This document shows, one piece after another, positions 1,130 to 37,558 of a stretch of 64,000 bases of DNA. A model generated the notes under the pieces. It was not told the origin of the DNA, did not search any database, and worked only from the letters and a program-made list of their open reading frames with translations. Numbering within the stretch: position 1 is the stretch's first letter; each line of letters starts with the position of its first letter. The translations under genes were made by a program, and so were the position numbers. Source of the DNA: Escherichia coli (GTDB taxonomy: Bacteria; Pseudomonadota; Gammaproteobacteria; Enterobacterales; Enterobacteriaceae). The stretch is taken from assembly GCF_024298765.1 (NCBI RefSeq), contig NZ_CP101210.1. One strand, 5' to 3'.

Positions 1130-1205
1130 GGCCCTTTAGCTCAGTGGTGAGAGCGAGCGACTCATAATCGCCAGGTCGCTGGTTCAAATCCAGCAAGGGC
1201 CACCA
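1130..1205 (+). tRNA. tRNA with anticodon CAU (ileX/ileZ-like; Ile2-lysidine or Met)
   Basis: 76 nt, cloverleaf with CTCATAA anticodon loop, GGTTCAAATCC T-arm, CCA end; close to E. coli ileX from memory. Confidence 0.8.
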
Positions 1206-1206
1206 A

Positions 1207-1283
1207 CCGTCACCAGTTCATCAGGAAAGAGCGTCAACCCTTTAAGTTGAGTGTGCGAGGTTCGAGTCCCCGGTGGCGGTCCA
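1207..1283 (+). tRNA. tRNA-like gene, non-canonical (anticodon loop CCTTTAA, possibly UUU/Lys; C33 instead of U33)
   Basis: Acceptor stem with one G-U, T-arm GTTCGAGTCC with one A-C mismatch, CCA end; may be a degenerate or pseudo tRNA. Confidence 0.4.
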
Positions 1284-1285
1284 GT

Positions 1286-1361
<76 letters not shown>

Positions 1362-1364
1362 TAT

Positions 1365-1439
<75 letters not shown>

Positions 1440-3790: not shown

Positions 3791-4330
3791 TTAGAAACTG
3801 CGTGGAGCTGTGGAAAGAATGGATGCCAGTTCTTCCTTCGATAAATCCCAGCTTCGATTTACAGCGTCAATTTTCTTAAACTCATCAAGCATTGCGTTAT
3901 AGAGATGTTCTGTACGTGAATGAGTATTGGCAATGGGCTGTTTCTGTTCGGGGAAGCGATCAATTTTCTGATATGCCTCAATGATACTGAAGTAATCGCA
4001 TTCATTATTACCGTCGAAACCTGGGAGCTGAATTGCCCCATCATGTATTTTTAGATGATGGTCACGGACTAATTCTTTTTGCTCGTCATCACTAAGTTTC
4101 CTGAAAGCATTGGAAAGTCCGCGATACATATTCAAGACAGCAGTAACAAAATCACGATCTTCTTTACTTGGTTCGTCAACATCCAAATGTGAATATTCGG
4201 CCTTGATAACCCAATCATTACCAGATGACACAGCATATTTAACAAGCTGTGGATCAATATCAGTTTCGATACCTAGGTGGATGGCAATGTCACATAACAA
4301 AATGGTATTGATTTTATCTTTAATATCCAT
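3791..4330 (-). CDS. Accessory (moron) protein, 179 aa, resembling YfbU/UPF0304 family; reverse strand at the lambda bor position
   Basis: Own RBS AGAGGG and promoter-like upstream region; motif pattern MY..L, GFD, C-terminal region reminiscent of YfbU (from memory, unverified). Confidence 0.5.
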   Translation of the reverse strand: MDIKDKINTILLCDIAIHLGIETDIDPQLVKYAVSSGNDWVIKAEYSHLDVDEPSKEDRDFVTAVLNMYRGLSNAFRKLSDDEQKELVRDHHLKIHDGAIQLPGFDGNNECDYFSIIEAYQKIDRFPEQKQPIANTHSRTEHLYNAMLDEFKKIDAVNRSWDLSKEELASILSTAPRSF

Positions 4331-4468: not shown

Positions 4469-4819
4469 ATGCCAGCACTAATCCCACGCGCCTGCCGTAA
4501 GCGTGGATGTGCAGGTACAACCACAGACAGTTCTGGTTACTGCGATAAACATCGTGGCGAAGGATGGGTACAGCATCAACGCGGACTGAGCCGCCACCAG
4601 CGTGGCTATGGCTCGAAATGGGATGCCATACGTGCGCGCATACTGAAGCGTGATAATCATCTGTGTCAGAACTGCCTGCGCAATGGGAGAGCCGTTGAAG
4701 CCAGAACTGTGGACCACATCATTCCGAAAGCTCATGGTGGCACGGATGCAGACAGTAACCTGCAGAGTCTGTGCTGGCCCTGTCATAAAGCAAAAACAGC
4801 GCGCGAACGCATCAATTGA
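4469..4819 (+). CDS. HNH endonuclease (terminase-associated)
   Basis: Cys-rich N-terminus and H-N-H signature DHIIPKAHGGTD...N...LCWPCH. Confidence 0.85.
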   Translation: MPALIPRACRKRGCAGTTTDSSGYCDKHRGEGWVQHQRGLSRHQRGYGSKWDAIRARILKRDNHLCQNCLRNGRAVEARTVDHIIPKAHGGTDADSNLQSLCWPCHKAKTARERIN

Positions 4820-4967
4820 TAACAGCTCCCATCTGCAGGGGAGGGGCGGGTCAAATCTCTGCAACCCTGGCTGTTCAGTACCGCCGCCTGACCCTTCCTC
4901 ACATCGCCGCAGGTTCGAAAACTTTTTTTTGGAAATGTGAACAAACGATTGATAGGTAAGACCGATT

Positions 4968-5450
4968 ATGTCAGGACCTCCGAAAACCCCGCCACGCCTG
5001 CATTTGATACGAGGCAACCCCTCAAAGCGCCCCGTTAAAGACCACAAAAAAACCGCTAAAAAGGATGAAAAAGGTCTTCCTAAAATTCCGCAGCATTTAG
5101 GGGCTCAGGGGAAGTACTGGTTCAGGCGAATGGCGGAAGAGCTGAATGCGGAAGGGATCATTTCTCAGCTTGATGCGCGTGCGCTCGAGTTGCTGGTGGA
5201 AGCCTACACCGAATATCGGCATCACTGCGAAACACTCGATGTTGAGGGGTATACCTACCGCACGGAAACGCAGAGCGGTGATGTACTGATTAAGGCGCAC
5301 CCCGCGGCGGCAATGAAAGCGGATGCCTGGAAGCGGATCCGGGCAATGCTTGCAGAGTTTGGTATGTCACCGGCAAGCCGGGCTAAAGTAAATATCGCCG
5401 GACCGGATGATGTTGATCCGCTGGCGGAGCTTTTAAAAGCGAGAGACTGA
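4968..5450 (+). CDS. Terminase small subunit (P27 family-like)
   Basis: Position upstream of and overlapping TerL start; typical basic N-terminus. Confidence 0.8.
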   Translation: MSGPPKTPPRLHLIRGNPSKRPVKDHKKTAKKDEKGLPKIPQHLGAQGKYWFRRMAEELNAEGIISQLDARALELLVEAYTEYRHHCETLDVEGYTYRTETQSGDVLIKAHPAAAMKADAWKRIRAMLAEFGMSPASRAKVNIAGPDDVDPLAELLKARD

Positions 5451-7207
5451 TGGCAAAAGTGGCTGACGGGATCCGCTACGCCGAACGTGTTGTTGCAGGA
5501 GAAATTGTTGCTGGCGAATTTGTCCGCCTGGCCTGCCAGCGTTTTCTTGATGATCTGAAGTACGGCGAAGAGCGGGGGATTTATTTCAGTGAACCCCGTG
5601 CGCAGCACATCCTGAATTTCTACAAATTTGTGCCTCATGTAAAAGGGGCGCTGGCAGGCCAGCCCATTGAGTTGATGGACTGGCATGTATTTATCCTCAT
5701 TAATATTTTTGGTTTTGTCATTCCGCTGGTCAATGAAGAGACCGGGGAAGTTGTCATGCGCAGCGATGGCAGCGGACGTCCGGTGATGGTGCGCCGGTTC
5801 CGGACGGCGTACAACGAAGTCGCCCGTAAAAACGCAAAATCAACTCTGTCATCGGGTATCGGCCTGTATATGACGGGGGCAGATGGTGAAGGCGGAGCTG
5901 AGGTGTATTCAGCCGCAACCACGCGTGACCAGGCCAGAATCGTGTTTGAAGACGCCAAAAATATGGTCAGAAAAGCCCGGTCGACACTCGGGCGGTTGTT
6001 TGATTTCAACAAGCTGGCGATTTACCAGGAGCAGAGCGCATCAAAATTTGAACCGCTTTCTTCGGATGCAAACAACCTAGATGGTCTGAACATCCACTGC
6101 GCCATTATTGATGAGCTGCATGCACATAAAACCCGTGACGTGTGGGACGTTCTGGAAACGGCAACCGGTGCCCGTCTGCAGTCCCTTTTATTTGGTATCA
6201 CCACGGCAGGGTTTAACAAGGAAGGGATTTGTTACGAGCAGCGTGATTACGCCATCAAGGTATTGCGTGGCTATAACAGCGACGTGGAGGGCGCGGTAAA
6301 AGACGACTCCTACTTTGCGATTATTTACACCCTCGATGAGGGAGATGATCCGTTTGATGAAACGGTCTGGCAGAAAGCGAATCCCGGCCTGGGCATCTGT
6401 AAACGCTGGGATGATCTGCGTCGCCTGGCGAAAAAAGCGAAAGAACAGGTCTCTGCGCGGGTGAATTTTTTTACCAAACACATGAATGTGTGGGTAACAG
6501 CAGAGTCTGCCTGGATGGACATGATTAAGTGGGAGAAGTGCGAATACATTGCCCCACGACATGAGCTGAAAACGTATCCCATGTGGGTCGGCGTTGACCT
6601 TGCTCATAAGATTGATATCTGTGCGGCGGCAAAACTCTGGCGAACGGATAACGGGCATGTTCATGCCGATTTTAAATTCTGGCTTCCGGAAGGACGGCTG
6701 GAACGATGCTCGCGGCAGCAGGCAGAACTTTACCGGAAGTGGGCGGAGATGGATAAGCTGATTCTGACGGATGGTGATGTTATCGATCATGCTCAGATAA
6801 AAAGTGACTTACTGGAATGGATTGGTGGTGAAAACCTCAGGGAACTGGGATTTGACCCGTGGAGCGCGATGCAGTTCAGCCTGGCACTGGCTGAAGAAGG
6901 GATACCGCTGGTGGAGGTTCCGCAGACGGTTCGCAATCTGTCAGAGGCCATGAAGGAAACGGAATCACTGGTCTATGCCGGGCGTTTCCATCACAGCAAT
7001 CATCCGGTCATGAACTGGATGATGTCTAACGTTACGGTAAAACCGGACAAAAACGACAATATCTTCCCGAATAAATCCACGCTGGAAGCCAAAATCGACG
7101 GCCCTGTTGCGATGTTTACAGCAATGAGCCGGATGCTGGTCAATGGTGGTGAACCGGAGCTGGATCTGTCTGAACATCTGGTCAGCGTGGGCATCCGCTC
7201 GCTTTAA
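5450..7207 (+). CDS. Terminase large subunit
   Basis: 585 aa, ATPase plus nuclease architecture, positional. Confidence 0.9.
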
Positions 7208-27395: not shown

Positions 27396-28254
27396 ATTCG
27401 TAATGATTACCTAAATACGTTATTCTTTTGTTAAAAAAGTGATTTTGCTATAGGTAGGGAGTATGTTCTTGGATTAAGAATAAAAAATCGCCATGAAAGA
27501 GCTTCATGGCGAGTACATAAACGTACAAAATGTGATGAAAGTAGAGTGGCGTAAGCCACTATATTAAGATATGACAATAGCGAAGAAAAGTAAATAACAT
27601 TTCATGGACGTTTAATTGTTAATTATAAAAACTAGAGTGCCCGATATTGTTTATCTTGCTTTAAAATAATGTACTCAAACCAAATTTTTGAGCTAAAAGC
27701 TCAAATAATATAAATGCAATAATAATGTTTAATAAGACAATTAGCTTGCTTTGTATTTTCATTTCGGAATACTGTTAAGTAACTTTGATGACCCTAACAA
27801 TAGATCGGAATTTTCTTAGAGTCAATGGTCACTGTTTTTGCTTGCAAAGCAAATGTTTTGGTGGTTATAAGTTGTCTTAATATAGTCACGCATGCAACTT
27901 GTTCCATGCGGAGATTAAAGATTGGAATATAACGCGAAGATGGAATTAAATTACATTTGCAATAATCAATTTATTATTACTCAATAATTACCGATATTAT
28001 TATTGTAAATTAATCATTAGAGTGCAAAAAGAAATGTAACGGCAAAATAAGAGGACGATAGCTGAGAAAAAAGCGTGCTTTCCCAATCTGGGGCAAATCA
28101 CGTCTGAATGACACCTGAAAACAGGTGGTAGCCTCAAGAAGGCTTGGAATATTCTTCTTTAATGTTATGTAATTCATTGATTTTTCGTGTACGATTTTAA
28201 GACATTTATTCCAAGAAAAATTTTTAACTCTTTGATTTTTCGACTCTGTATCAT

Positions 28255-28316
28255 CGGTCTCGAAAACCGGAGTAGGGGCAACTCTACCGGGGGTTCAAAT
28301 CCCCCTCTCTCCGCCA
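28255..28316 (+). other. serU: Prophage attachment core: 3' 62 nt of tRNA-Ser(CGA) serU ending in CCA, no 5' half
   Basis: Sequence CGGTCTCGAAAACCGG...CCCCCTCTCTCCGCCA matches serU 3' portion as recalled; upstream sequence is not tRNA. Confidence 0.8.
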
Positions 28317-28862
28317 CTTTATCAATGACTTATCTCCTGACTTCCCGCCTTGCTTTTCCTAAACAGAACAATCGTAGAATATTCTTGAAGGGTTAGATCG
28401 TCACTGTTTTCTGTTCGATACTGTGACATTCAGCACTTGATTCGCTATGGAGCTGACAGGAAGGTTTCGAGCGAAAATCTACAGTTATTCAGTCGTTTTC
28501 TTATCGGTCACCATTATTCTTTTAGACATTGATCCTATGAAACTGCCGCAAAGTTGCTGGCGGGAACTGAAGTTGCGTAGAGAAGGGGTCAATAATTGAG
28601 TCAAAAAAGGAACGCGGCCGTCAGATTAAAGCCGCGGGACAAAGTCCATAATTTCCAAGAGTTGTTGAATTTCCCAGCTTTTTTGAAAGCCTTTGTATCA
28701 TACTAACAAGTAAAAAAGGTTTAAACACCAAAATTAACCTATATTTCTGGTTAGCTTTACCATGACAGATGACTTGCTCCTGGAAACATTTGTGCTGCCA
28801 GTCTGTATGGCTGAGTTGTGTATTTATTGTTCGCCTTTTTCGCATTTTTTTTTCTACAGACA

Positions 28863-36827: not shown

Positions 36828-37135
36828 TATGTATTCCCTTGTGATTATAATCTTCATGAATATATCAATAAGTGCCGTTATCCAAAAAAAGCACATTTGG
36901 ATACTATTCTATGAAGTTCATTTTATTTTAAAGATTACATGCAACAAATATATTTAAAAGATTTCAAAATGTTTCTAATCTATTTAATATAATTCAGAAT
37001 TATGAATTCTAAACATAAGTATTCATGAAAATTATCAATTCATATCAATATATTATGAGTTTAGCGGAAAGATAGGGGGTATCAATGATTGATGCGCTAA
37101 ACGGCTGGTGTGATCACGCGCACATTAATGAAGGC

Positions 37136-37235
37136 ATAAAAAAGCCGGCATCATGCCGGCCCAAAAAATATAAACAAGACGATAAAAGGCTAATAACGGA
37201 GGCATCATGACACAGAAAAATAAAAAGGTATAATT
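37136..37235 (-). ncRNA. Candidate small RNA in yedS-yedR intergenic region (possibly RseX)
   Basis: Minus-strand hairpin GCCGGCATGATGCCGGC followed by TTTTT; CCUCC anti-SD-like stretch upstream; RseX location recalled, sequence not verified. Confidence 0.3.
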
Positions 37236-37558
37236 GTATTCAGTGCTAATATATTGATTAAATGAATTAATAAAGCCGATATCAAAGATAAATAAAATCG
37301 CTCAAAACGATTTTTCCTGTATTCACTGCCGTTGCGCAAAATTTATCTATTTTTTCAAAAAATGATTGAGTCTTGACTGGCTCATTCAATGTGGAAAAAT
37401 GTGACTTTTATCACATAATAGTACTAAGTCTGAATTTTCCGGGTTATCTCAAAATGGAATACGGTTCGACAAAGATGGAAGAGAGGCTCTCTCGCAGCCC
37501 TGGTGGCAAACTGGCTTTGTGAGCTTTCTATACATGGTGTGGCTATTTCGTCTGGGCA

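Follow-up and report, generated by a model that had tools for sequence, protein, structure and literature searches.

The locus raises the question of what function, if any, is served by the 148 bp (4820-4967) that separate the end of an HNH-endonuclease open reading frame, at 4819, from the ATG of the small-terminase gene terS, at 4968, in a prophage of Escherichia coli. An earlier note had placed a possible cos, or packaging, site there, and the interval that it had named proved to be exactly the HNH–terS intergenic gap, in its entirety. The window that we analysed—by which we mean the whole 64-kb stretch of DNA—opens inside a lambdoid prophage and contains the late half of that element only, whose genes up to and around the gap are the following:

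224-919: the gene of the Q antiterminator.
1130-1439, plus strand: a tight cluster of four genes for tRNAs (Met-CAT, Lys-TTT, Thr-TGT, Gly-TCC), between the Q gene and the lysis genes.
3791-4330, minus strand: a YfbU-domain gene (PF03887, E 6.5e-12), between the lysis cassette and the HNH gene.
4469-4819, plus strand: the HNH endonuclease gene (116 aa), a packaging accessory nuclease (Pfam HNH PF01844, E 1.9e-16).
4968-5450, plus strand: the gene of the small terminase TerS, of the P27 family (160 aa; Pfam Terminase_4 PF05119, E 2.3e-25).
5450-7207, plus strand: the gene of the large terminase TerL, of the HK97 type (585 aa; Pfam TerL_ATPase and TerL_nuclease).

Between the tRNAs and the YfbU-domain gene, which looks like an inserted accessory ('moron') gene, lie genes for a DUF1327 protein, a lysozyme and Rz, while the HNH, TerS and TerL genes are followed by those of the portal, an S78 protease, a capsid protein of the HK97 fold and the tail, up to about 27.4 kb.

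Within the gap, the GC-rich motif TACCGCCGCCTGACCC is present at 4879-4894, as the earlier note had reported. The T-run that was said to flank this motif is also real, in the form of eight T residues at 4923-4930, but is situated 29 nt downstream instead of directly alongside. The 7-mer CGCCGCC, on which the comparison of the motif with the lambda cosN had been based, occurs 29 times in the window against an expectation of 13.6 ± 3.9, and taken alone is uninformative. What does exceed chance is a degenerate composite signature, consisting of the G-rich box/TCAAATC, 22 nt and ACYGCC, for which 0.08 occurrences would be expected in the window and of which there is one, at 4849-4885.

If the gap were an ordinary spacer with expression signals—a promoter, a terminator, an RNA element or a small ORF—and the cos lay elsewhere, one would look for such signals within it. 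Small hypothetical ORFs have in fact been annotated across the gap in records such as PV340540, PQ351753 and ON470608, and ORFs of 47 and 96 aa (4816-4959 and 4650-4940) overlap it in the window; small ORFs overlap the cos gap at the loci L006 (736-888), L094 (736-825) and L093 (712-849). The scan of 4820-4967, however, returned neither promoter-like nor terminator-like sites, an Rfam search of the gap matched no family, and the folding of its RNA was nothing unusual (z = 0.36), for which reasons the reading as a regulatory RNA or a terminator was dropped. In addition, the conservation among relatives that we describe below is not codon-like, combining as it does a fixed spacing and an invariant AC/CGCC (the slash marking the cut) with a variable spacer, and the composite signature is unique in the window. 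We accordingly regard the ordinary-spacer explanation as very unlikely, and the small ORFs, in view of that non-coding pattern, as probably spurious. Since the gap is devoid of competing signals and the 7-mer by itself is not telling, the case for a cos site rests on the comparison with relatives.

A search of phage records returned close relatives that were 92-98% identical (e.g., vB_EcoM-606R7 and phi467, deposited as phage genomes) along with phiP27, for which the identity was 82% over the HNH gene and the left portion of the gap; and a search of higher sensitivity brought in mEp235, SfV, SfI, Fraca and several Klebsiella and Morganella phages. All of these, and HK97 with them, share, without gaps, a common geometry: a G-rich run plus TCAAATC, exactly 31 nt from the T of the latter to an invariant AC, and then the 10-nt overhang, whose sequence begins with CGCC—or with TGCC in SfV and SfI. 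The earlier note had recommended a comparison with the cos sites of HK97 relatives, and that comparison, as carried out here, thus yields a gapless alignment with the same geometry. The position of the cut within this alignment is anchored by the following records:

HK97: the right end of the record reads ...GAC CGCCGCCAAA and the sequence restarts with GTTTGAATT..., record position 1 being the published +1.
phiP27: a 10-nt 'cos-site', CGCCCGCCCC, is annotated in the record.
Proteus phage Pm34 (TerS 63% identical): the deposited linear record opens exactly at GGAC/CGCCCCCTTA.
Pantoea phage AH07: the deposited linear record has ...CCTGAC as its last bases, again at the 31-nt spacing, and begins anew at the position homologous to +1.
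Fraca: the predicted +1 is the breakpoint of an assembly chimera, where a 131-nt TerL fragment is joined via a 4-nt overlap, CCTC.

Three features (T16, a C:G pair at position 21 and an A:T run over 24-29) agree with position 1 of the HK97 record being the published +1, and the ends of HK97 DNA are stated to be 10-nt 3' overhangs (PMC9410871, PMC11331095). For SfI, a gap of 10 nt, TGCCCGCCCC, remained when virion DNA was sequenced by run-off (PMC3636060), and this sequence is identical to the last 10 nt of the SfI record. AH07, whose gene layout has the HNH gene at the right end and a P27-type TerS, lacks the 10 overhang nucleotides in its record, as would be expected if library preparation trims 3' overhangs. 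The junction of the Fraca chimera, for its part, suggests a physical end at the homologue of +1. In that record (LR597645.1, our locus L010; also L095), positions 1-131 are an internal fragment of the phage's own TerL gene fused to the right flank of cos, and the end of the record duplicates 60 nt of its start region, so that the record would seem to have been chimerically assembled at the end of the genome. A related peculiarity is seen in the Providencia phage PSTRCR_117lys (MW358929.1, L098/L099), a record labelled circular that is devoid of about 39 nt of the cos core in comparison with Pm34, and in which, at the end–start junction, ...CTCGCC runs straight into GGTTAGAAAAC..., which arrangement suggests a false circularisation across physical ends. 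Viral contigs were also searched for ends at cos: one, from a metagenome (L213), stops 5 nt short of the predicted bottom-strand nick on its left side, and others have their ends in other places; this group was set aside as evidence. The Klebsiella phage KLB28, whose TerS starts near the start of the record, has neither an HNH gene nor a cos-like end and was uninformative. Headful (pac) packaging, which the earlier note had named as the contrary outcome, does not describe these relatives, in that they have defined ends at the homologous position.

The transfer of these cuts to the window by homology leads to the following predicted features:

4838-4850 and 4851-4857, plus strand: the G-rich box and TCAAATC, respectively, with 31 nt (T4851 to C4881) to the bottom-strand nick.
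4880-4883, strand not applicable: the ACCG context of the predicted bottom-strand nick, which falls between 4881 and 4882.
4881/4882, bottom strand: the predicted nick, transferred from relatives by homology.
4891/4892, top strand: the predicted nick, likewise transferred.
4882-4891, plus strand: the predicted 10-nt 3' cohesive end CGCCGCCTGA, in gapless alignment with CGCCGCCAAA of HK97, CGCCCGCCCC of phiP27, TGCCCGCCCC of SfI and CGCCCCCTTA of Pm34.

The predicted cohesive end lies within the GC-rich motif. From the nucleotide-level homology and the preserved spacing with respect to the cos sites of relatives, we conclude that 4820-4967 is very probably the cos site of an HK97/phiP27-like prophage, in support of the proposal of the earlier note; and, with somewhat less assurance, we consider the nick positions likely to be exact to within 1 nt.

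The extent of this conservation was assessed in 143 distinct cos regions, obtained by pooling the results of an IMG/VR scan for the right-flank block with the loci found through TerS; the 80 IMG/VR loci of the latter kind are nearly all prophages of isolate genomes, with TerS 98-100% identical, and are informative on alleles, not on physical ends. AC/CGCC was present at the fixed offset in 142 of the 143 unique relatives, as well as in HK97, phiP27 and Pm34, and the mean frequency of the most common base was 0.999 over those six positions, 0.85 in the G-rich box, 0.62 in the 22-nt spacer and 0.41 further to the left. Since the search pattern lay to the right of the cut, the conservation of AC/CGCC was not forced by the search. 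What varied across the 143 relatives were the spacer and the last three bases of the overhang, the alleles of which were CGCCGCCTAA (60 sequences), CGCCGCCTGA (38; the allele of the window, and the second commonest), CGCCGCCTAG (11), CGCCCGCCAA (9), CGCCGCCTTA (8) and CGCCCCCTTA (7), plus rarer ones. Of the two nick contexts, then, one is fixed (AC/CG), while the bases at the other are free. A literature search with the exact overhang alleles and their complements returned unrelated primer and plasmid matches only.

The likeness to lambda that the earlier note had drawn raises the alternative of a lambda-type cos, in which a symmetric cosN is cut to give a 5' overhang. The cos of lambda has a 12-nt 5' overhang, and the complement of its cohesive end, GGGCGGCGACCT, does share CGCCGCC with the window, which in addition contains one match to the IHF consensus, at 4942-4954; the 7-mer, however, is the common one counted above, and that IHF match is not conserved among the relatives. 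The overhangs of the mapped relatives are, moreover, of 10 nt and 3', and we see by inspection of the sequence no two-fold symmetry around the nicks, in 4881-4892. As to the proteins, Pfam assigns only Terminase_4 to TerS and only TerL_ATPase and TerL_nuclease to TerL, with no other family; and the window has the HNH partner that lambda is missing (PMC9410871). The Discussion of the same paper gives lambda a 10-nt 5' and HK97 a 12-nt 3' overhang, which contradicts both the legend of its Figure 1 and PMC11331095, where HK97 has 10-nt 3' overhangs; the two numbers have seemingly been swapped. We thus give a lambda-type cos next to no credence, the least of all the explanations considered here. 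What the window does share with lambda is the general logic—a nicking site, a binding region for the small terminase on the terS side and an upstream element on the side where the motor arrives—together with the 7-mer and the place of cos on the map of the prophage, after the lysis genes and before terS; whereas the polarity and length of the overhang, the absence of a Nu1/gpA-type terminase, the requirement for an HNH partner in the window's family and the lack of a symmetric cosN all set the window apart. The resemblance to the lambda cosN is, in consequence, superficial.

With the reading as an HK97/phiP27-like cos thus preferred, the region to the left of the cut can be considered together with the HNH protein. 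The G-rich box plus TCAAATC recurs at identical spacing in HK97, phiP27, SfV/SfI, mEp235, Fraca, the Klebsiella and Morganella phages, Pm34 and AH07, even though the 22-nt spacer between it and the nick diverges among those relatives; this pair of elements, placed much as a cosQ would be, is a putative recognition element upstream of the cut. Along its whole length, the HNH protein is matched by the HNH endonuclease of GVE2 (5H0M, E 1.3e-14), and it is 37% identical to HK97 gp74 over 70 aa (E 7e-12). The HNH enzymes of the Gram-positive phages GVE2 and phiGamma have been reported to nick at CG^GT, which is AC^CG on the other strand (Xu and Gupta, PMC3592412), and the invariant AC/CG context of the bottom-strand nick matches that reported specificity; in SfV and SfI, the nick context is ACTG, which the same paper lists among tolerated variants (PMC3592412). 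A link between the nicking specificity of the HNH enzymes and the AC/CG context may be drawn from this agreement, but the HNH proteins of HK97 and sk1 have been reported as non-specific when alone (PMC3592412, PMC12967558), which circumstance weakens the assignment of a strand to HNH.

To the right of the cut, two features call for comment:

4905-4930 (+14 to +39 from the cut), plus strand: the conserved block CGCCGCAGGTTCGAAAACTTTTTTTT, a putative TerS site (cosB-like), which contains the T-run.
4942-4954, minus strand: a match (TATCAATCGTTTG) to the IHF consensus WATCAANNNNTTR, a weak candidate that overlaps the conserved block adjoining the ribosome-binding region.

The block at 4905-4930 consists of a GC-rich element, CGCCGCAGG in the region of the putative TerS site, followed by an A/T tract. 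In the form CGCCGCAGGTT[A/C]GAAAACTTTTTT, the block is nearly invariant in the window's clade, which comprises phages of E. coli, Klebsiella, Morganella and Proteus with TerS 57-100% identical; the variation is limited to the one A/C position and to the first C, which is an A in Pm34. Where the type of TerS differs, as in phiP27/SfV and HK97, the block is replaced by other sequences: CTAACCCGATTTTTT in HK97, with its gp1-type TerS, and ACCCGCGAAA followed by an A/T tract in phiP27 and SfV. In HK97, the TerS site has been mapped to +15 to +29, where gp1 recognises the DNA through an Arg128/Arg7 clamp, and requires a specific C:G pair and a flexible A-tract (PMC11331095). Because the position and layout of the block parallel those of the HK97 site, we read 4905-4930, by analogy, as the likely TerS site. 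Short direct repeats (CGAAAAC twice and CRWTTGATA three times) were considered as candidate TerS repeats but, being short families of two or three copies, could be due to chance.

The earlier note had spoken of an HK97-type terminase, a description that holds for TerL, which matches the HK97 TerL structure 6Z6D (phmmer E 1.2e-35, residues 122-559), and also for the HNH protein, but does not extend to TerS. The latter, named 'phage terminase small subunit P27 family' in RefSeq, gave no BLASTP alignment with HK97 gp1 at E <= 100 and is 20-21% identical to the TerS of phiP27 and SfV; and its AlphaFold2 model (from a 37-sequence alignment; mean pLDDT 68.3) had no Foldseek match in the PDB at E <= 0.001. 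For the TerS of the window, the binding mode of the HK97 protein is therefore to be taken as an analogy only.

The IHF consensus has 7 matches in the window against 2.8 expected, and the one at 4942-4954 is kept in close E. coli variants and absent from mEp235 and from the Klebsiella, Pm34 and Morganella relatives. As an IHF site within cosB, the match is a weak candidate, in that it is present here but is not conserved in relatives that have the same right-flank block. As a separate observation, mEp235, Fraca and the Klebsiella, Pm34 and Morganella phages have a short GC palindrome after the T-run, at +40 to +52 counted from the cut; its sequence changes from phage to phage (GGGGTCCCC, GGGGAACCCC, CCGGGATACCCGG) while the palindromy is kept. 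The window and its close E. coli relatives do not have this palindrome and carry GGAAATGTGAAC in its place.

The comparison of the two flanks with individual phages can now be drawn more closely. HK97 resembles the window in having its cos between the HNH gene and terS, in its homologous TerL and HNH proteins, in the G-rich box and TCAAATC 31 nt before the AC, and, 15-40 bp in from the left end, in a GC element with an A/T tract behind it, although the A/T tract of the window lies about 4-8 bp further from the cut. The overhangs CGCCGCCAAA and CGCCGCCTGA both start with CGCCGCC and differ in the last three bases; the family of the TerS is another, and the sequence to the right of the cut is unrelated. 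The window is, in short, HK97-like in its cosN, TerL and HNH, but not in its TerS or cosB. The phages phiP27, SfV, SfI and SfIV share with the window the Pfam family of the TerS (Terminase_4, named for P27), the spacing and the 10-nt length of the overhang, and their left half, taken from the HNH gene as far as ...GACCGCC, has a DNA identity of 81-82% to that of the window. Their overhang, however, is [C/T]GCCCGCCCC, the window having the core CGCCGCCTGA instead of CGCCCGCCCC and so standing outside that overhang type; and their right flank is of the type ACCCGCGAAA..., ...TTTTTAYACCCGCGAAA, whereas that of the window reads CGCCGCAGGTTCGAAAAC... The third group, that of mEp235, Fraca and Pm34 (Hendrixvirinae with a P27-type TerS), is close to the window in the TerS (63-74% identical by tblastn), in the AC/CGCC nick context and in the right-flank block, which in mEp235 and Fraca is the window's own and in Pm34 differs in the first base (ACCGCAGG); the differences reside in the last bases of the overhang alleles (TAG, TAA and, in Pm34, CCCCTTA) and in the GC palindrome (GGGGTCCCC or GGGGAACCCC) that the window is without.

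These comparisons have in common that the DNA to the left of the cut follows the HNH gene, while the DNA to the right of it follows the type of TerS. The phiP27/SfV type and that of the window are, furthermore, linked by natural hybrids, such as L055, which combines a phiP27-type left half with a window-type right half as GGGAC CGCCCGCCAA CCCTTC. In that sequence (IMGVR_UViG_638341082_000007, about 1109-1130), the left part reads GGGAC CGCCCGCC and the right part AA CCCTTC..., and the TerS is the same as in the window; about nine other unique IMG/VR sequences have hybrid cos alleles like it, with the junction inside the 10-nt overhang. Since the hybrids join within the overhang, the boundary between the modules lies at the cut.

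From the homology with the mapped relatives we infer the following course of events at this site. During lytic growth, the terminase would act on concatemeric DNA, with the P27-family TerS binding the block of GC element plus A/T tract to the right of the cut, at about 4905-4930, and the G-rich box possibly acting as the upstream element. TerL and the HNH nuclease would then make two staggered nicks, the bottom strand being cut at 4881/4882, within the invariant AC/CG, and the top strand 10 nt rightwards, at 4891/4892. The product would be genomes with 10-nt 3' cohesive ends, with CGCCGCCTGA belonging to the top strand of the right end, and packaging would run rightwards from the terS side and stop at the next cos.

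How the two nicks are shared between the two nucleases is a question that the work on HK97 leaves open, in that gp74 and TerL may or may not each cut one strand (PMC11331095). A fixed sequence at one nick and a free one at the other would fit a division of labour between HNH and TerL. We tentatively suggest, as a possibility about which we are more doubtful than confident, a cos of two halves, in which the HNH protein nicks the bottom strand at AC^CG in the left half, and the TerS-linked right half sets the cut of the top strand by TerL, measured at 10 nt and blind to sequence. With the same reserve, the left half would comprise the G-rich box, the fixed 31-nt spacer and AC^CG, travelling with the HNH gene, and the right half would travel with TerS.

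A site that is a cos by descent might still be out of use, if the prophage were defective and never packaged DNA. Many E. coli prophages are cryptic, and the window contains only the late half of this one, the early genes, the integrase and the other attachment site being outside. Nevertheless, the late genes in the window are all intact ORFs with full-length family matches; the cos region, with its invariant positions kept, is present in identical or nearly identical form in at least 500 of 5,426 complete E. coli genomes, for which the RefSeq entries listed annotate only the two flanking genes; and the region recurs, as stated above for vB_EcoM-606R7 and phi467, at 92-98% identity in deposited phage genomes. 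Disuse of the site is therefore improbable, though less so than the other alternatives that we have weighed.

At the far end of the late genes, past the tail-fibre assembly gene, the region from about 27400 to 28400 is AT-rich (GC 0.38-0.40) and is probably the attachment-site end of the prophage. A tRNA-like 3' fragment ending in ...GGGGGTTCAAATCCCCCTCTCTCCGCCA is located there, at 28262-28320, in which ARAGORN calls no tRNA, and four IHF-consensus matches are clustered at 27964-28332. The region adjoins the host zinT, the gene of a ferric-reductase-like membrane protein and a molybdopterin-oxidoreductase gene (msrQ/msrP-like). Two more IHF-consensus matches, on opposite strands and about 200 bp apart, occur at 37043-37259, in an AT-rich intergenic region of the host.

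What is new here are the predicted base-level coordinates of the cos, which is an ordinary site of the known and well-studied HK97/phiP27 kind. Their practical value is modest, consisting in coordinates for a packaging site where RefSeq annotates nothing in the gap; but knowledge of the cos allows phage assemblies to be oriented and opened correctly, some public records being chimeric or truncated exactly here, flags the small ORFs called across the site as probably spurious, helps to foresee which plasmids or satellites lend themselves to packaging by such phages, and may serve the design of cosmid-like tools. For the biology of the family, the invariant AC/CG at one nick, the variable sequence at the other and the exchange of modules at the cut provide a cheap means of testing how the two nicks are divided between HNH and TerL; and the two-half reading, if true, would settle which of the two models that still stand for the 3' overhang of HK97 (PMC11331095) is right and would also account for the natural hybrid cos alleles.
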